Below, piece after piece: positions 8,504 through 43,406 of a stretch of DNA of 64,000 nt (the first letter of the stretch is position 1; every line of letters starts with the position of its first letter). The stretch covers positions 74,344-138,343 of the forward strand of contig VGUH01000002.1 in the NCBI GenBank assembly GCA_016874295.1. Direction: 5' to 3'. A program made the translations under genes and the position numbers. The notes below the pieces were generated by a model. That model was not told the DNA's origin. It worked only from the letters and a program-made list of their open reading frames with translations, and searched no databases. This stretch comes from Gammaproteobacteria bacterium (GTDB lineage Bacteria > Pseudomonadota > Gammaproteobacteria > Steroidobacterales > Steroidobacteraceae).

Positions 8504-10006
8504 TCAGTGTTCCGGAACGACCACGCCGCGCACCCCGGACATTCGCAACCCGAGCTGCGGCAGTCCGAAGCGCGCGGTCTCGTCCACGATCTGGCCGAGG
8601 ATCTCGCGCGCCCTGGCCTCGTTGCTGACCAGTCGTGGAGTGCCGCTCGTCGTCAGCCGGTCGCCGTACCCGAGCTCCACCGGGTGCAGCACGATCTCGG
8701 CGAGCTCGCCGCCGGCAAAGCGGACTTCGGCGATCACGGTCTGGAAGGTGAAGGCGTTCGCGAAACTGCCCGTGTTGAGCGGCGCGGTCAGATCGTACTC
8801 CGTCACGCGCCCCGGATACACCCAGGTATTCTCCAGCAGCCCGCGGTTGCGCGCGAACAGGTCGTGCGGCAGGAGTTCCTGCACGTCGCTCCAGAAGAAG
8901 TTGCCGAGTCCGTAGAAGATCGGCCGCTTGCCGCGCGCGGGCGAATTGTAAATTTCGACTGGGCCGAGGTTGTGGTTGCCCGTGGTGACGAACACGTCGG
9001 CGCCGGAGTCGACGGCGCCGCGCGCCAGCTCCTTGAGGAAGTTCGCCGCGCCGCGCGGACTGCCGGAATCGTCGCAGCCGGTCGAGCACTCGTGCGCGTG
9101 AATCGCGGCGATCACGAAGTCCGCGTTCAGCTGCGCCGCGCGGATCGCGGCGTAGATCTCGCGCAGGTCCTCCGGATCCATCGCGTGCTCGCGCGAATAC
9201 CGGTCGGCCTCGCGGTATTGCGTGCCGAAGAGACTGCCCTGCTTCGGCACGTCCTTGCAGTTGACGCCGTGCAGCGCGCACTGCACCTGGGCGATCGCCT
9301 TGATCGCCGGGCGCGGCGCGAGCAGCGTCTCCTGCAGGTGCAGCGCGCTGAGGCCCGGACGTCCCGGTGCGGTCGGCGCCCGCGGCAGCGAGTTGCTGGT
9401 TGGCCGGAAGGTGGAGGCGAAGGAGACGACGGCGATGCGGCCCGCCGGGCTTTCGAAATAGGCGGGCGCGCGCGCGATCCCGTGCGTGTCGCCCGTGCCG
9501 GCGTGCGGGATGCCGGCCGCGTCGAGCCAGCGCGAGGTCTCGCGCATGCCCTCGAGGCCCCAGTCGAGGCTGTGATTGTTGGCACGGCCGACGATGTCGA
9601 AACCCATCGACTTCAGGTCGTGCGCGACCGCCGGCAGCGACGCGTTGGTCCAGTCGCCGTCCCAGGAATACGGCGAGCCCGTGAAGGTGCGCGGGTCGAA
9701 GATCGTGGTCTCGAGGTTGCCGAAGGTGACGTCCGTGCCGCGCAGGATCTCGAGGACTTTCGCGAACGCAGGCATGGACTCCGCCTGCTGCGAGAGCGGG
9801 CGCGAAATGATGAGGTCGCCGACCGCCGCGGCCGTGAAGCCGTCCGGCACGCTCGCCTGCATTTCGGCCGCAATCGGGCGTTTCGGATCGAGGCGGCTCG
9901 CGTCGCGGATGGTCGGGTCGGCCGGCCCGAAGGGCGGTTCGGCGGCGAACGCCGCGGGCGCGGCGACAGCGGCCAAAAGCGCGAGCAGCAAATGGTGTCG
10001 GTTCAT
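8504..10006 (-). CDS. CapA-family (poly-gamma-glutamate capsule synthesis-like) metallophosphatase-fold protein, secreted
   Basis: 500 aa. Signal peptide MNRHHLLLALLAAVAAPAAFA. Blocks FGNLET, GRANNHSLDWG, AIHAHE, TTGNHNLGP typical of the CapA/PGA_cap family. Confidence 0.7.
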   Translation of the reverse strand: MNRHHLLLALLAAVAAPAAFAAEPPFGPADPTIRDASRLDPKRPIAAEMQASVPDGFTAAAVGDLIISRPLSQQAESMPAFAKVLEILRGTDVTFGNLETTIFDPRTFTGSPYSWDGDWTNASLPAVAHDLKSMGFDIVGRANNHSLDWGLEGMRETSRWLDAAGIPHAGTGDTHGIARAPAYFESPAGRIAVVSFASTFRPTSNSLPRAPTAPGRPGLSALHLQETLLAPRPAIKAIAQVQCALHGVNCKDVPKQGSLFGTQYREADRYSREHAMDPEDLREIYAAIRAAQLNADFVIAAIHAHECSTGCDDSGSPRGAANFLKELARGAVDSGADVFVTTGNHNLGPVEIYNSPARGKRPIFYGLGNFFWSDVQELLPHDLFARNRGLLENTWVYPGRVTEYDLTAPLNTGSFANAFTFQTVIAEVRFAGGELAEIVLHPVELGYGDRLTTSGTPRLVSNEARAREILGQIVDETARFGLPQLGLRMSGVRGVVVPEH

Positions 10007-10009
10007 GGC

Positions 10010-11179
10010 TCAGCCCAGCAGTCCTGCATCGTATGGGTACTGCGAAAGCACGATCGGCCCCTCGGCGGACACCCAGACTTCGTCTTCCAGCTTGACGCCG
10101 TCCTTCGCGCCCACCTTGCCGGCGTAGCACTCGACGGCCAGCACCATGTTCTCCCGGAACTCGCCTTCCGGCATCTCCGTGTAGGGATCGCCCGGCAGCG
10201 GGATGTTCGGCGACTCGTCATCCACGCCGATGCCGTGCACGATGACGCCGTAGGCCTGCTCGCGATAGGCGGCCGGCAGCGGCGGGCAGCGCGCCACGAA
10301 GTCCGAGAACGCGAGCCCCGGCCGGATGATCTCGCTGCAGCCGCGCACGAAGTCGTGGGCGACCTTGTAGGCCTCCTGCTGCGCCGGGCTCGCCGTCTCG
10401 CCGCACAGGAAGGTGCGCGAGAAATCCGCCACGTAGCCTTCCGGCCCGATCGCGTCCGTGTCGATCGCGACTAGGTCGCCGGGCTCGACCCGCTTGTCGT
10501 CCGCCTCGTGCAGCCAGGGATTCGTCTTCTGGCCTGAGACGATCAACCGCGTGAAGCACTGCTCGCCGCCCAGCGCGAGGATCCGGTGCCAGAAGATCGC
10601 GAGCAGCTCGTTCTCGGTGATGCCGGGCCGTACCGCGCGCTCCAGGTCGGCGAGCGCCGCCTCGGCCACGGCGCAGGACTGCCGCAGCAGCTCGACTTCG
10701 TCCGCAAGCTTGATGATGCGCGCCGCCGACATCGCGCGGTCGGCGTCCGTGAGCGAAAGGCCGCGCGCCTGCAATGCCGCGTAGCCGTTGTAGTCGAGCA
10801 CGTCGATGCCGATGCGCTCAGCGGCGATCCCCTTTTCCGCGAGCACGTCGCGGATCTGCTGCGCCCAGACGCGTGCCTTGCCGGGAGAATCCGCGTCCGT
10901 GACCCGCGCCTGCCAGAACATCGAGGGGCGCACGTCATTCCAGTAGGGTCGCTGGCGGAACTCCGCGCCGCCGTACTCGAAGATGACGGGCTCGCCCGCG
11001 GCGGGCACGACCACGTAGTGCGCGATGTTCACCGCCGTCCAGAGCGGCATCACGGCGACGCCGGTGCAGTAGCGGATGTTCACGGTGTCCGTGAGGACGA
11101 GCGCGCCGATGCCCTGCGCCGCCATGGCGCGCTGCACCTTGGCGAGGCGGTCGCGCCGCAAGCGGGCAAGATCGACCAC
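10010..11179 (-). CDS. M24-family metallopeptidase (Xaa-Pro aminopeptidase / creatinase-like)
   Basis: 389 aa. Creatinase-like N-domain plus pita-bread domain with DTDAIGPEGYVADFSRT, VHGIGV and LAVECY metal-ligand regions. Confidence 0.8.
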   Translation of the reverse strand: MVDLARLRRDRLAKVQRAMAAQGIGALVLTDTVNIRYCTGVAVMPLWTAVNIAHYVVVPAAGEPVIFEYGGAEFRQRPYWNDVRPSMFWQARVTDADSPGKARVWAQQIRDVLAEKGIAAERIGIDVLDYNGYAALQARGLSLTDADRAMSAARIIKLADEVELLRQSCAVAEAALADLERAVRPGITENELLAIFWHRILALGGEQCFTRLIVSGQKTNPWLHEADDKRVEPGDLVAIDTDAIGPEGYVADFSRTFLCGETASPAQQEAYKVAHDFVRGCSEIIRPGLAFSDFVARCPPLPAAYREQAYGVIVHGIGVDDESPNIPLPGDPYTEMPEGEFRENMVLAVECYAGKVGAKDGVKLEDEVWVSAEGPIVLSQYPYDAGLLG

Positions 11180-27235: not shown

Positions 27236-29413
27236 TTAAGTGCGCCGGATCTCGAAGCACGCGTGCACCTTCGCATCCCGTGAGAAATCGAGCGGTAAGG
27301 TAGACCTGGTGATGTCGCGCACCTGCAGGTCCTTCAGTGACTCCGCGTCCAGCCTGAATTTCCGGAAGTTGGTCGAGAAGAGCAGCAGCCCGCCCGGCGC
27401 GAGCAGCCTTGTAGCCGCGCGGATGAGTGACGCGTGGTCGCGCTGCACGTCGAACTCGCGCTCCATGCGCTTCGAGTTCGAGAACGTGGGCGGGTCGAGG
27501 AAGATCAGATCGAACCGCTCGAGCCGGGATTCCGCCAGCCAGGCCAGGCAATCTTCCTGGATGAAAGCGTGCTCGCCGGCAAGGCCGTTGACGGCCATGT
27601 TCCGCTTCGCCCAGTCGAGATAAGTGTGGGACATGTCCACGCTGGTCGTGGACTTTGCGCCGCCCGCCGCCGCGTGGACCGTGGCCGCGCCCGTATAACA
27701 GAAGAGATTGAGGAACCGCCTGCCCCGCGCGAACTCGCGGATCCGCGCGCGGGTCTTGCGGTGGTCGAGGAACAACCCGGTGTCGAGGTAGTCGGTGAAG
27801 TTCACGAGGAACTTGAGGCCGCCCTCCTCCACGACCACGCGCTCGCCTACCTCGGCGATCGCCTCGTACTGCGACTTCCCCTTCTGTGGCCGGCGCGTGC
27901 GCCAGTAGATGGCCTCCATCGGCAGGCCCATCACTTCTGGCAGGACGGAGATAGCCTCCTCGCGCCGCGCCTTGGCCTTCGCGCGGTCCACGGTCGCGGG
28001 CGGCGCATATTCCTGCACGTAGAGCCAACGCCCGGCGCTGCCCGCAGGGTCCGACTGATAGAGATCGATCGCGACCGCGTACTCGGGCATGTCAGCGTCG
28101 TAGAGGCGGTAACAGGAGACCTGCTCGCGCTTGGCCCAAGAGGCGAGCTTGTCGAAGTTCTTCTTCAGTCGGTTGGCGAACATCTGCGCACCCGGCCGCG
28201 CGCGCGCCGCTTCCGCGTCGATCGGCGGCGGCCGGCCCGGCACGCGCGGCCGGTCGAACTCCGAGGGCTCGACTGCGATCCGCAGCAGACGGCACTCGAT
28301 CGGGCCGTTCATCATCCGGTGCGTGCGCCGGGCATTGATCCCGAGCTCGCGCCCGAGCGCGGGATTGCCGGTGAACACGGCCGCCTCCCAGCCGAGGTAA
28401 CCCGCGCGCAGTCGCTCGCCGAGCAGCGCGTACAGCGCGCGCAGCGCCTCGGCTTCGCCGATGCGCTCGCCGTACGGCGGGTTCACCGCGACGAGCCCCG
28501 AGGGCGCGGGTGCCCCGGGCAGTTTTTCGAGTTCGCAGCGCTGAAAAAAGAGGCGCCTGTCCAGGCCTGCACGGGCGGCGTTCGCCTCGGCGTCGCGGAT
28601 CGCGACCGGGTCGCGGTCGAAGCTGCGGATGCGGCCCGGCGTCAGGAGCGCGACCTGCCGGCGCGCCTCGGCGGCGGCGCGCACGGCGGCCCATGCGTCG
28701 GCATCATGCTGCTTCCAGCGCTCGAAGCCGAAGCGCGTGCGCGACAATCCCGGCGCGATGTCCGCGGCGATCAGCGCGGCCTCGATCGGCAGCGTGCCGG
28801 AACCGCACATCGGGTCGACGAAGCTGCCGCCCGCGGCCGCGATCGCCGGCCAGCCCGCGCGGACCAGGATCGCGGCTGCGAGATTCTCCTTGAGCGGCGC
28901 GGCGCCCGCGCCGCCGCGGTAACCGCGCCGGTGCAGGTTGTCGCCCGAGAGGTCGACCGCAATAGTCACCGCCCCGCGCGCTGCGTGCGCATTGATGCGA
29001 AGCGAAGGCGACTCGCGGTCGACCGAGGGCCGCGAGCCGGTCCGTTCACGGAACTGGTCGACGACCGCGTCCTTCACGCGCTGTGCGCCGTACTGCGTGT
29101 GCGTGACTCCGGGCAGGCTGCCCGAGAAGTCGACCGCAAGCGTACCCTCGGCGTCGAGGTGCTCGCTCCAGTCAACCGCGCGAACGCCCGCGTACAGCGC
29201 TTCGGCATCAGCAGCCGGATAGCGCAGGAGCTGCCAGAGGACCCTGAGGCCGATGCGCGACTCGAGGCAGGCGCGATACGCCGCCGCGAGCTCCCCCTCG
29301 CAGGCGACGCCGCCCTGCACTTCGCGCGCGCCCTCGATGCCGAGCGCGGCGAGCTCCGCGGCCAGCAGATCCGCCGTGCCAGCCGCCGCGGTCACGAAGA
29401 ACAGCGCGCGCAT
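27236..29413 (-). CDS. rlmL: Bifunctional 23S rRNA (guanine2069-N7)/(guanine2445-N2) methyltransferase RlmK/RlmL
   Basis: Start at ATG 29413 (MRALFFVTAAAG). THUMP region, DPMCGSGT, NPPYGER, then a second methyltransferase domain LNLFCYTGAATVHAA and IFLDPPTFSNSK. 725 aa. Confidence 0.9.
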   Translation of the reverse strand: MRALFFVTAAAGTADLLAAELAALGIEGAREVQGGVACEGELAAAYRACLESRIGLRVLWQLLRYPAADAEALYAGVRAVDWSEHLDAEGTLAVDFSGSLPGVTHTQYGAQRVKDAVVDQFRERTGSRPSVDRESPSLRINAHAARGAVTIAVDLSGDNLHRRGYRGGAGAAPLKENLAAAILVRAGWPAIAAAGGSFVDPMCGSGTLPIEAALIAADIAPGLSRTRFGFERWKQHDADAWAAVRAAAEARRQVALLTPGRIRSFDRDPVAIRDAEANAARAGLDRRLFFQRCELEKLPGAPAPSGLVAVNPPYGERIGEAEALRALYALLGERLRAGYLGWEAAVFTGNPALGRELGINARRTHRMMNGPIECRLLRIAVEPSEFDRPRVPGRPPPIDAEAARARPGAQMFANRLKKNFDKLASWAKREQVSCYRLYDADMPEYAVAIDLYQSDPAGSAGRWLYVQEYAPPATVDRAKAKARREEAISVLPEVMGLPMEAIYWRTRRPQKGKSQYEAIAEVGERVVVEEGGLKFLVNFTDYLDTGLFLDHRKTRARIREFARGRRFLNLFCYTGAATVHAAAGGAKSTTSVDMSHTYLDWAKRNMAVNGLAGEHAFIQEDCLAWLAESRLERFDLIFLDPPTFSNSKRMEREFDVQRDHASLIRAATRLLAPGGLLLFSTNFRKFRLDAESLKDLQVRDITRSTLPLDFSRDAKVHACFEIRRT

Positions 29414-41328: not shown

Positions 41329-41405
41329 TGGTGGCTAGGGAGAGAATCGAACTCTCGACCCCGGGGTTATGAATCCCGTGCTCTAACCAGCTGAGCTACC
41401 TAGCC
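41329..41405 (-). tRNA. tRNA-Met (anticodon CAT), elongator-like
   Basis: Reverse complement is GGCTAGGTAGCTCAGCTGGTTAGAGCACGGGATTCATAACCCCGGGGTCGAGAGTTCGATTCTCTCCCTAGCCACCA. 7-bp acceptor stem, GCTC/GAGC D stem, loop TTCATAA, GAGAG/CTCTC T stem, encoded CCA. Paired 1-72 argues against an initiator. Lysidine-modified tRNA-Ile2 cannot be excluded by eye. Confidence 0.85.
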
Positions 41406-41494
41406 ACGCGGCGGGAAGGTACCCCGGGGAGGCGCGATTGTCGGGACCGGGCCGGTGGCTGTCAAGGACGCGCCGGTCCCCGGGGTCCGCGGCC

Positions 41495-42280
41495 TCAGGG
41501 CGGCTCGGCAAAGCTCCTGAGCGAGTGCCACTCGATCACTTCCTGCAGCAGCACGCGCTCGGTCTTGAGCACGATGTGCTCCAGGCTGTTCCAGGTCAGG
41601 CAGGCGGCGACCTCCGCGCGGTTCGCGGTCAGCAGCGCACGCATTTCCTGGTAACGCGCCACGCGGCGCTGCAGATCGTTGATCGAGATGATCGAGATCA
41701 GCGAGGCCGCGACCACCGGCAGCGAGATCTGCAGGAACACGAAAGCCGTCTCCTCCACCCAAAGCGGAACGGGCGGAACGGCGATGCCGGCGGTGCGGGT
41801 CACGGCGTAGCTCGCAATGCAGGCGACCGCGAGCAGCGTCGCGACCCAGAATCCCGCCATCAGCCGCCGGTAGACCGGCAGCGCCTTGTTGACCTGCCGG
41901 TTGAAGTAGGCGATCTGGTCGTCGATGCGCTTGGCGAGGTAGACCGGCTTGAATTCCTCGATCGGCAGGCTGCGCGTGGCCGAGGAGCGCGTGTGCAGGA
42001 TGTACAGCGCGCGGGTCAGCCGCCGCGCGCCCACGAGGTCGAGGTCCTGCAGCAGCGGCGCGGCGCGCGGCAGGCCCCAGGTCGCGAGCGCCGAGCGGCA
42101 GAATTCCGCCGCCAGACGGCAGCGCACCCAGCTGTGGTGCGAGCGCAGGTGCCTTCTCAGCGCGAGCGCCGCGACCAGGCCGAAAGTGACGAACACGAGC
42201 TTCGCCCAGGGCAGCGCCAGCATGTGCAGCGCGTAAGCGACGGTCGCGGTCGCGATCAGCGTCGCCATCACGTGCGACAT
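41495..42280 (-). CDS. Four-TM membrane protein made of two tandem 2TM modules, SLATT-like (SMODS and SLOG-associating 2TM effector)
   Basis: Module 2 is YLAKRIDDQIAYFNRQVNKALPVYRRL, then TM (WVATLLAVACIASYAV), TM (FVFLQISLPVVAASLISII), then NDLQRRVARYQEMRAL, the pattern I associate with DUF4231/SLATT. Module 1 is ..GAPHFRRL, then TM (VMATLIATATVAYALHML), TM (LVFVTFGLVAALAL), then SWVRCRLAAEFCRS. Start uncertain: ATG 42280, or GTG 42340 overlapping the upstream gene. Confidence 0.6.
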   Translation of the reverse strand: MSHVMATLIATATVAYALHMLALPWAKLVFVTFGLVAALALRRHLRSHHSWVRCRLAAEFCRSALATWGLPRAAPLLQDLDLVGARRLTRALYILHTRSSATRSLPIEEFKPVYLAKRIDDQIAYFNRQVNKALPVYRRLMAGFWVATLLAVACIASYAVTRTAGIAVPPVPLWVEETAFVFLQISLPVVAASLISIISINDLQRRVARYQEMRALLTANRAEVAACLTWNSLEHIVLKTERVLLQEVIEWHSLRSFAEPP

Positions 42281-42294
42281 GACCGTGGCAACGA

Positions 42295-43014
42295 TCAGGC
42301 GCCGGAAGTGCGGGGCGCCCTGGCTCGCTGCCAGTCGCACTTCTCCTGGAAGCGCAGCACGGAATCGGGCGCCGCGAAGGGGTTCTCGCCGCCGCTGAAC
42401 GGCGCCTCCGGCAGGGCGTTCAGGTCCTCGAGGATCGCATCGCCGGCCTCGAGCTTGTCCCAGTTCTCGCGCCGCATCGCGCGCGTCGCGGGGTCGATGA
42501 TCAGCACCGGCTTGCCGATCGACTTGGCGTACTGCACGACCTGGCCCGTGCCGCCCTTGCCGCGCGGGTCGTTGCCGTCCCAGACGGCGAGCAGCAGGTC
42601 GCAACCGTTGACTGTTTCGATGCCGCAATCGAGGTAGCTGTCCTCGCGATCGCCGTACTCGTGGATGGTGCGCATGTGGTCGGCGGACTCGAGCATCGCC
42701 TCGACCGACGCCCATTCTTCCGGCGCGAAGTCGCGCGCGAATTCCGGGCGCGCGAGCGGCAGGATGCAGTGCCAGGACATGCCGGCCGCGCGCGCTTCGC
42801 TCGCGAACAGCTGGTCGCCGCCGCGCGCGATCGACGACAGCGCGATCCACTCGCCCGGGACCTCGCGGACCAGGAACGCGAGCGCCTCGCGGATCGCGAG
42901 CGACGCACCGCCGGGATCGGTGAGGTGGCGATGCCCGGTGAAGCCGACGACGTTGAACAGCGGTAGCCGGCCGGCGGCGGCGGCGGGCAGCGGTGGTGTT
43001 GCGGTATCGGTCAT
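42295..43014 (-). CDS. SLOG-superfamily (SMF/DprA-LOG, YpsA-like Rossmann fold) protein, predicted nucleotide-ligand binding
   Basis: 239 aa. VVGFTGHRHL (strand 1 plus Gly loop), SSIARGGDQLFASEA (GxD motif as in DprA/YpsA), CDLLLAVWDGNDPRGKGGTGQVVQYAKSIGKPVLII (C-terminal GGT motif). Confidence 0.6.
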   Translation of the reverse strand: MTDTATPPLPAAAAGRLPLFNVVGFTGHRHLTDPGGASLAIREALAFLVREVPGEWIALSSIARGGDQLFASEARAAGMSWHCILPLARPEFARDFAPEEWASVEAMLESADHMRTIHEYGDREDSYLDCGIETVNGCDLLLAVWDGNDPRGKGGTGQVVQYAKSIGKPVLIIDPATRAMRRENWDKLEAGDAILEDLNALPEAPFSGGENPFAAPDSVLRFQEKCDWQRARAPRTSGA

Positions 43015-43022
43015 CGTTGCGT

Positions 43023-43406
43023 TCAGGTCGTCCCGGCGGGCGCTGCTCCGGGTTGCGGCCCCAGCGAGAATTCTCCGCTCGCGCTGAAGCGATGCGAACC
43101 CAGCTTGCCGCTCATCGAGTAGCGTATCTGGTCGGCCTGTGCCGCGTCCTTCACGCCGATCACCTGGCGCACCATGCGCAGCATCGAGACGGTAACCGGC
43201 ACCTCGACCACGGCATCGCTGAAGCCCGGGACGGTGCCACCGGCATTGCTTACGCCGGTCGCAAAGGTCTTGTCCTGCACCTCGCCTTTCTCCTGCATCG
43301 GCTCGATGCCGGCGACGGTGACCTGCAGAGGGTCCCGGGCCGCAAGCGACGCGCAGCCCGCCTGGGTCAGTGCCGCGGCCAGTGCAATGAGCATGTTGCG
43401 GATCAT
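43023..43406 (-). CDS. Small lipoprotein, LEA-type-2 (water-stress/hypersensitive-response)-like, apparently shortened
   Basis: Lipobox LTQAGC. FATGVSNAGGTVPGFSDAVVEVPVTVSML..RQ...IRYSMSGKL resembles bacterial LEA_2 lipoproteins. The segment normally between the first strand and the FATGVS block seems to be absent. Confidence 0.5.
   Translation of the reverse strand: MIRNMLIALAAALTQAGCASLAARDPLQVTVAGIEPMQEKGEVQDKTFATGVSNAGGTVPGFSDAVVEVPVTVSMLRMVRQVIGVKDAAQADQIRYSMSGKLGSHRFSASGEFSLGPQPGAAPAGTT

Follow-up and report, generated by a model that had tools for sequence, protein, structure and literature searches.

One of the questions raised by the metagenome-assembled genome of a Steroidobacteraceae bacterium (contig VGUH01000002.1, positions 74,344 to 138,343; this whole stretch of 64,000 nucleotides (nt) is called the window below) is whether two open reading frames (ORFs) that lie between ychF and tRNA-Met are in fact two genes. 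A sequence-only reading had described them as a pair, with a SLOG-like sensor followed by a separate SLATT-like membrane effector. The ORFs quoted there, their motifs, the 14 nt between the stop codon of the first ORF and the ATG of the second, and the tRNA-Met/ychF setting are all present as described, and the shared direction with the upstream lipoprotein gene and ychF was confirmed, everything being on the minus strand. The division into two genes did not hold. The two ORFs are parts of one fused gene (41495-43014, minus strand; SLOG-SLATT_3-SLATT_1), about 506 amino acids (aa) long with one lost base restored, and homologs align across both of them. We consider it probable that this gene, with its SLOG domain and tandem SLATT modules, belongs to a Thoeris-like family and that the copy in the window is a recently inactivated orphan relic that has no TIR partner.

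The 5' ORF (239 aa; 42295-43014, minus; FJ171_01485, MBM4218312.1) contains the SLOG-like domain followed by nine out-of-frame residues and a stop codon. The 3' part of the gene (41495-42328, minus) is in another frame and is SLATT_3-like and then SLATT_1-like, as judged from sub-cut-off profile scores and the homolog P0045. It holds an ORF of 261 aa that runs from ATG 42280 to 41495, while GenBank starts FJ171_01480 at GTG 42340, 12 nt upstream of this part, which gives a protein of 281 aa. A plot of the G+C content at third codon positions puts both ORFs in clear coding frames (the window is 69% G+C), but such a plot of the whole window is unable to separate a frameshift from a normal gene boundary, and homology was used instead; homologs of both ORFs were found at E values of 1e-94 to 1e-123.

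In a search with the 239-aa ORF, the homologs P0025, P0032 and P0005 continue without a break into the membrane part (...FQQKCDYHASHGAPQFRRLIVATVVAHVV...), and the membrane part, used as query, retrieved many proteins of 465-485 aa with PF18184 (SLATT_3) and PF18181 (SLATT_1). Many metagenome homologs are likewise single polypeptides, of 465-523 aa. Relatives were scanned with one genome per GTDB species, which gave 226 genomes with a relative, from which 80 loci were kept; all 80 match as one unbroken ORF and 76 of them span the query from residue 1 or 2 to residue 481. The typical homolog is thus a single protein of ~480-510 aa with a SLOG-like domain, SLATT_3, SLATT_1 and four transmembrane helices. 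When full-length homologs were compared to the window by tblastn, two high-scoring segment pairs were obtained in different frames, abutting at 42334/42328, with 2 nt left for one residue. Two members of the same 90%-identity protein cluster, P0159 (509 aa) and P0160 (523 aa), are intact, and the loci L090 and L093 have TGG CAC GCG AGC in place of the TGG CA- GCG AGC of the window. One C of a His codon was lost between 42329 and 42328, and this loss splits the reading frame.

The position of the break fits this result. It lies inside helix 195-211 of the intact-homolog model, which is the start of the SLATT_3 match, and not in an inter-domain linker. The helix ending in APHFRRL, which had been assigned to the first membrane repeat, is present in the sequence, but it is coded upstream of ATG 42280, where this frame and the 3' end of the SLOG ORF overlap; the sequence-only reading had here, in effect, read through the frameshift. 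In the continuous protein of relatives this stretch is included (...KCDWHASQGAPHFRRLIVATVMSHV...). The first predicted transmembrane helix, too, has its start before ATG 42280, and its coding sequence includes the nucleotides of the SLOG stop codon, read in the other frame. Programmed frameshifting was considered as well and was rejected, as reading the sequence around TGG CAG CGA gave no slippery heptamer. For annotation, FJ171_01480 and FJ171_01485 are best treated as one disrupted gene and not as two hypothetical proteins.

The 239-aa ORF displays the motifs VVGFTGHR, SSIARGGDQLFA and LLAVWDG..GKGGTGQVVQYAKSIGKPVLII, on which the SLOG assignment had been made. Its AlphaFold2 model has a mean predicted local distance difference test score (pLDDT) of 91.9 and a predicted template modelling score of 0.86. 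In a Foldseek comparison of this model to the Protein Data Bank (PDB), the best match is Bacillus subtilis YpsA (2nx2; E 7.3e-7, template modelling score 0.68, 172 columns), and further matches, with probabilities of 0.99-1.0, include ShosA, DprA from three species, a molybdenum cofactor (Moco) carrier protein, the SLOG domain of BcThsA, and LOG. All three of the folds that had been named for comparison, YpsA, DprA and LOG, were therefore matched, and the SLOG assignment is supported at the level of the fold. The same folds are matched by a model of P0045, an intact homolog (pLDDT 91.8). Based on these models, the window ORF is a three-layer Rossmannoid fold of the SLOG superfamily, with its YpsA/DprA-like core at residues 20-183 (42466-42957, minus). 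The GGD (GxD) of ARGGDQLF is at residues 65-67, and S60, G65 and D67 are nearly invariant in alignments of 28-42 homologs. The GxD/E motif is a signature of the YpsA clade and was predicted to bind substrate (PMC6459960). The fold, this motif and the TIR neighbourhood described below suggest that the SLOG domain may bind a nucleotide or a ligand derived from ADP-ribose.

The association of SLATT with SLOG reportedly goes back to Burroughs et al. in 2015. Pfam describes SLATT as the "SMODS and SLOG-associating 2TM effector domain", that is, a module with two transmembrane helices. A hydropathy scan of the membrane frame of the window shows four hydrophobic segments. With the scan and the P0045 model taken together, helix 1 is predicted at 42212-42301 (helix 214-238 of the model), helix 2 at 42155-42232, with the conserved juxtamembrane helix WVRCRLAAEFCRSALATWGL after it, and helix 3 at 41777-41869, preceded by RIDDQIAYFNRQVNKALPVYRRL; helix 4, predicted from the scan at 41672-41752, ends in the invariant INDLQRRVARY (all minus strand). 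The helices of the P0045 model (214-238, 245-266, 330-386 and 393-420) form, in two copies, a hairpin of two transmembrane helices of the kind that SLATT modules have between cytoplasmic helices. P0045 is 66% identical to the window protein and passes the Pfam gathering cut-offs for SLATT_3 (residues 202-291) and SLATT_1 (residues 337-471) with 27.1 bits each, and most homologs have precomputed matches to PF18181 or PF18184. An hhalign comparison of the two SLATT halves is weak (probability 9.8%, E 0.003), so that the tandem-SLATT reading is drawn from the separate Pfam matches and not from the mutual similarity of the halves. The earlier tandem-SLATT call is upheld in this way through P0045, the window protein itself scoring below threshold.

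The relative-bearing genomes are mostly from Opitutaceae (Verrucomicrobiota) and Steroidobacteraceae. When the flanking ORFs of the relatives were clustered, the dominant class of neighbour was found to be a protein of ~730-770 aa with an N-terminal TIR domain and a large array of tetratricopeptide repeats (TPRs), usually with one hydrophobic segment, a predicted transmembrane helix, right after the TIR domain. By Pfam the partner TIR domains match TIR_2 (1.4e-20 and 1.6e-11) and ThsB_TIR (1.1e-5). Their consensus sequences in relatives retain GYFR.EW and s.wvneeil, which we take to hold the catalytic Glu. Using custom hidden Markov models (HMMs) built from the partner TIR domains, TIR genes were detected at 61 of 83 loci in one to three copies. 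Where both flanks are at least 3 kb long, a TIR gene lies within 1 kb at 35 of 52 loci, and two or three copies are frequent. In Opitutaceae these genes are upstream of the SLOG-SLATT gene and point away from it; in Steroidobacteraceae they follow directly downstream on the same strand. In the window, neither the partner-TIR HMMs nor blastn against the relatives revealed a TIR gene within the 64 kb, and no SMODS or cyclase gene was found there. The earlier statement that no TIR gene is adjacent is thus correct for the window and does not describe the family; nor is the source of the activating ligand simply unknown, as had been stated, since relatives carry adjoining TIR-TPR genes that were lost in the window lineage.

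Some further genes recur around the module. In Opitutaceae, nSTAND1 NTPase-TPR genes are near it at 10 loci and PRiA4_ORF3-family genes at 11 loci; L011 3164-6388 and L047 5224-5823 are examples of such neighbours. A distant homolog that is SLOG only, P0037 (191 aa), lies in an apparent TIR operon at L098 1151-10181, with the order TIR_2 (345 aa), a protein with a RyR domain (881 aa), SLOG, and a DUF4062/NACHT/TPR protein (1517 aa); the TIR gene beside a RyR-domain protein is a curious pairing.

Such an architecture is not new. A SLOG domain with four transmembrane helices beside TIR genes, named "SLOG and 4TM" or "4TM SLOG", is one of the 29 types of putative Thoeris effector listed by Yirmiya et al. 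(bioRxiv 10.64898/2025.12.03.692087, Tables S1 and S2), and the window gene is a degenerate member of this catalogued, still unverified candidate family. The likeness is one of architecture alone, a SLOG domain fused to four transmembrane helices and adjacent to TIR genes. The sources tested were Streptomyces sp. GKU 895 and Ca. Nitrospira nitrosa (Yirmiya et al.), and the TIR protein of the Streptomyces example is the sole literature TIR that matches the HMM of the Opitutaceae-type partners (E 1.8e-6). What differs here is, first, the partners, large TIR-TPR proteins that mostly have a predicted transmembrane helix and often come in two or three copies, and second, the window copy, which is frameshifted and has no TIR genes. 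The particulars of this clade are therefore its TIR-TPR partners, most with a predicted anchor, its tandem SLATT_3 and SLATT_1, and its fixed ychF/tRNA-Met position in Steroidobacteraceae.

Other Thoeris systems share single elements with the gene. In type VII, canonical cyclic ADP-ribose (cADPR) made by a TIR protein activates the SLATT effector ThsH (Yirmiya et al.); a TIR signal is coupled there, too, to a SLATT membrane effector with predicted membrane disruption, but ThsH is described with a SLATT annotation only and its ligand pockets are predicted between SLATT protomers, whereas here the receptor is probably the N-terminal SLOG domain, with two tandem SLATT modules after it. In type I, the SLOG domain of ThsA, a SIR2-SLOG protein, binds 3'cADPR (Yirmiya et al.). 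A similar role for SLOG as receptor of a TIR product is predicted here, and the structure of BcThsA SLOG bound to 3'cADPR (7uxs) is a significant fold match (E 1e-3); the effector, however, would be a membrane SLATT part in place of a SIR2 NADase, SLOG stands at the N-terminus so that the order of domains is reversed, and the SLOG domain is nearer to YpsA/DprA than to the STALD-type SLOG of ThsA. The statement that no such pairing had been characterized experimentally is dated, since characterizations now exist both of the sensing of cADPR isomers by SLOG (type I) and of SLATT effectors driven by TIR proteins (type VII). Type III, as described in papers that cite van den Berg et al. (2024), has several TIR genes and a DprA-like SLOG effector, ThsD, so that by this description it also couples multiple TIRs to an SMF/DprA-type SLOG domain; its TIR sequences give no match to the partner-TIR HMMs. 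YpsA itself (2nx2, DUF1273) is the best structural match (template modelling score 0.68-0.69 over ~172 residues) and shares the GxD/E motif, but identity is 17%, the family protein has no Pfam DUF1273 match, and YpsA is a soluble, cell-division-linked protein that has neither a membrane domain nor a TIR context.

By analogy with the published Thoeris systems, a mechanism can be proposed for the intact module. A TIR enzyme would convert NAD+ into a signal derived from ADP-ribose, the YpsA-like SLOG domain would bind this signal in the cytoplasm, upon which the tandem SLATT membrane part would oligomerize or open, and the membrane would be permeabilized and growth would stop. In the window lineage the TIR genes are gone, and the loss of one C in the first SLATT_3 helix has left a soluble SLOG ORF and an ORF with four transmembrane helices.

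The next question is whether the frameshift exists in nature and how it arose. The exact 239-aa product with its out-of-frame tail is encoded on at least 23 contigs (ENA, JGI and Logan) from different samples, with identical gene order. L086-L089, which come from independent assemblies, have the same deletion and match the window over 1.5 kb at 100% identity except for the duplications described next. Because the same allele recurs in independent assemblies, the frameshift is real and not an assembly error. The three frameshifted haplotypes differ solely by two independent 9-nt tandem duplications in the region 41672-41790 (minus), both absent from L089 and from intact relatives. In the window haplotype the duplication is in the loop between helices 3 and 4, just 5' of helix 4, and in the L086-88 haplotype it is within the conserved motif of helix 4, giving ISIISIISINDL. 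Two indels against zero substitutions suggest, from sequence comparison, that constraint on the membrane part is relaxed. The LEA_2 protein encoded upstream is also shorter in the same lineage (window and L086-89): the window protein has 127 aa and has no counterpart of 30 residues (GLELRLLVRLRVQNPN...VKVQ) of its 156-157-aa close relatives, an in-frame deletion.

A series of states at the ychF-to-tRNA-Met interval is seen when relatives are limited to those with proteins at least 90% identical to those of the window. In L093-96, ychF is followed by LEA_2 (157 aa), the intact 509-aa gene, a 733-aa TIR-TPR gene 10 nt further on, a gene for a secreted protein of 593 aa, and tRNA-Met. In L090-92 an intact 523-aa gene is directly followed by tRNA-Met, and there is no TIR gene. 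In the window and L086-89 there is no TIR gene either, the SLOG-SLATT gene is frameshifted and LEA_2 is 30 aa shorter. The 4.2 kb of L093 that are missing in the window lie exactly between the SLATT stop codon and the tRNA-Met promoter, and blastn alignments of the window with L093, L005 and L053 put the junction at 41467-41494 (minus). A further Steroidobacteraceae locus, L034, has short TIR-matching fragments (9406-10228) downstream of an intact SLOG-SLATT gene, which looks like another stage in the decay of the partner gene. The series is a natural record of module decay at a fixed chromosomal site, and experiments on the "SLOG and 4TM" type would be better served by its intact relatives, such as P0159 and the 733-aa TIR-TPR protein encoded next to it, than by the window.

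Several observations weigh against a Thoeris-like family with an inactivated window copy. The window ORF has no SLOG profile match: its best Pfam hit is Nuc_deoxyrib_tr at E 0.18, NCBIfam gives none, and a 20-member family profile found no match among PDB sequences up to E 10. On the SLATT side, Pfam SLATT_1 scores 18.7 bits (E 0.0018) in the window ORF and 21.2 in the reconstructed protein, with a cut-off of 26.3, and NCBIfam SLATT_1 scores 23.8 bits (3.3e-5) with a cut-off of 41. The profile-HMM check that had been proposed for both proteins is therefore passed by P0045 for SLATT_3 and SLATT_1, while SLOG is unmatched and the SLATT scores of the window stay below the cut-off. About 30% of the amply flanked loci have an intact gene and no adjacent TIR gene; since such intact loci exist, loss of the neighbour alone is no proof of lost function, and a TIR gene could also lie elsewhere in the genome, outside the 64-kb window. 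The ratio of nonsynonymous to synonymous changes is 9:24 in the window lineage and 9:20 in the intact L090 (3:30 for ychF), and as there is no nonsynonymous acceleration the inactivating event would have been recent; it is the frameshift and the indels, and only these, that point to a pseudogene. As for defence, PADLOC gave no match on the two ORFs, a scan of IMG/VR found no relatives on viral contigs, and two "SLOG and 4TM" systems gave no phage defence in E. coli (Yirmiya et al.). In Steroidobacteraceae the place of the gene, behind ychF, is fixed and is not a defence island. The sequence-only reading had itself named a fixed housekeeping context as evidence that would speak against it, and had suggested comparing the interval in close relatives; the TIR content of the interval does vary among them, but the position of the gene does not.

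The two products of the split gene might still work. One possible option is a natural two-protein system acting in trans, with a soluble SLOG sensor, a SLATT protein of four transmembrane helices started at GTG 42340 or ATG 42280, and a signal enzyme encoded elsewhere. That the allele is common and that its branch shows no raised nonsynonymous to synonymous ratio compared to the intact sister lineage agree with such a system, and the 281-aa ORF from GTG 42340 would keep all of helix 1. A lineage-specific change of CAG to GAG (42338-42350, minus; Q to E in FQEKC) has moreover created an AGGAG before this GTG, which may have arisen by chance or may serve as a weak site of re-initiation; the gap between the two, however, is just 2 nt, and ATG 42280 has no Shine-Dalgarno sequence. 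Both indels of the membrane ORF are in frame, but they are products of slippage on 9-nt repeats and this in-frame state needs no selection, and in one haplotype three residues are duplicated in the most conserved motif of helix 4. With relatives that lack the frameshift all making one polypeptide, a break within the first SLATT_3 helix where a linker would be expected, and no TIR, SMODS or cyclase gene in 64 kb, we regard a working split system as unlikely. An assembly or sequencing artefact, with the gene intact in the organism, is extremely improbable. It is true that many database homologs are shortened or fused by indel errors in assemblies of the long-read type (P0002, P0008, P0018, L005, L097), but the identical deletion is found in independent short-read assemblies of different samples (MEGAHIT k141, JGI, Logan), the site is not a homopolymer and the neighbouring genes of the window are all intact. 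In those error-prone assemblies, housekeeping genes are broken as well, and we take this to be the reason for truncated or chimeric homologs such as P0008 (LEA_2-SLOG) and P0018 (ychF-SLOG). L005 and L097 (ENA ERZ25039597 and ERZ25039470) are frameshift-ridden, with rplY and pth fused and ychF fragmented.

Another hypothesis regards the role of the whole family, which might not be anti-phage at all. The module might serve chromosomal physiological signalling, for example in envelope stress, with extracytoplasmic TPRs of membrane-anchored TIR proteins as sensors and the SLOG-SLATT protein tuning membrane permeability, and the window lineage would no longer need it. The position after prs-rplY-pth-ychF(-LEA_2), fixed in ~22 Steroidobacteraceae loci, would fit this, as would the build of most TIR partners, a TIR domain with a hydrophobic segment and a large TPR array that is unlike the small soluble ThsB, together with the empty PADLOC and viral-contig searches and the unprotected E. 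coli. Yet the content of the interval varies among close relatives (TIR genes present, absent or degraded), which is typical of accessory conflict genes, and nSTAND1 NTPase genes are found near the Opitutaceae copies. Horizontal transfer is suggested by the presence, in Verrucomicrobiota as well as in Gammaproteobacteria, of proteins that are 60-85% identical to an Opitutaceae-type query, and the pairing of TIR with SLOG or of TIR with SLATT is established defence logic. We consider a purely physiological role rather improbable. A related and equally doubtful scenario is an "outside-in" pathway in Steroidobacteraceae and Opitutaceae, in which single-pass membrane TIR proteins would sense a cue from the envelope or from outside the cell through extracytoplasmic TPRs and make a messenger derived from NAD that would gate a SLOG-regulated tandem-SLATT channel, maybe with a physiological purpose; the free SLOG protein of the window might then act as a sponge or decoy. 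If true, Thoeris logic would here have a variant that is fixed in the chromosome. The inactivated, TIR-less relic of a Thoeris-like SLOG-SLATT gene is the reading that we prefer, and it leaves one more question for the intact relatives, namely whether membrane-anchored TIR-TPR enzymes sense something other than cytoplasmic phage proteins.

The surroundings of the gene are ordered on the minus strand as prs (46925-45972), rplY (45959-45147), pth (45143-44547), ychF (44531-43440), the LEA_2 lipoprotein gene (43023-43406; Pfam LEA_2 2.4e-8), the 239-aa ORF, the 261-aa ORF and tRNA-Met(CAT), with the start of the SLOG ORF 8 nt beyond LEA_2. In the ~22 Steroidobacteraceae loci the gene follows the same prs-rplY-pth-ychF order, with or without LEA_2, and tRNA-Met closes the interval as in the window. 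The tRNA (41405-41329) and a promoter-like site (TTGACA-17-GACAAT at 41465-41437) occupy 41329-41465, and this region is 95-98% identical to relatives and forms the conserved downstream edge of the variable interval. A mobile-element origin of the gene was also considered and was rejected, given that the IMG/VR scan returned no relatives. The position of LEA_2 varies: it is found either directly ahead of the SLOG gene or between the TIR genes and tRNA-Met, next to the latter (L048, L056 and L063 compared to the window, L005, L060, L090 and L093), which suggests rearrangement of, or independent insertion into, the ychF-to-tRNA-Met interval. Elsewhere in the window, at 28202-28295 (minus), a tRNA-Arg(TCG) is predicted by ARAGORN with 94 nt, which is unusually long for a tRNA-Arg.

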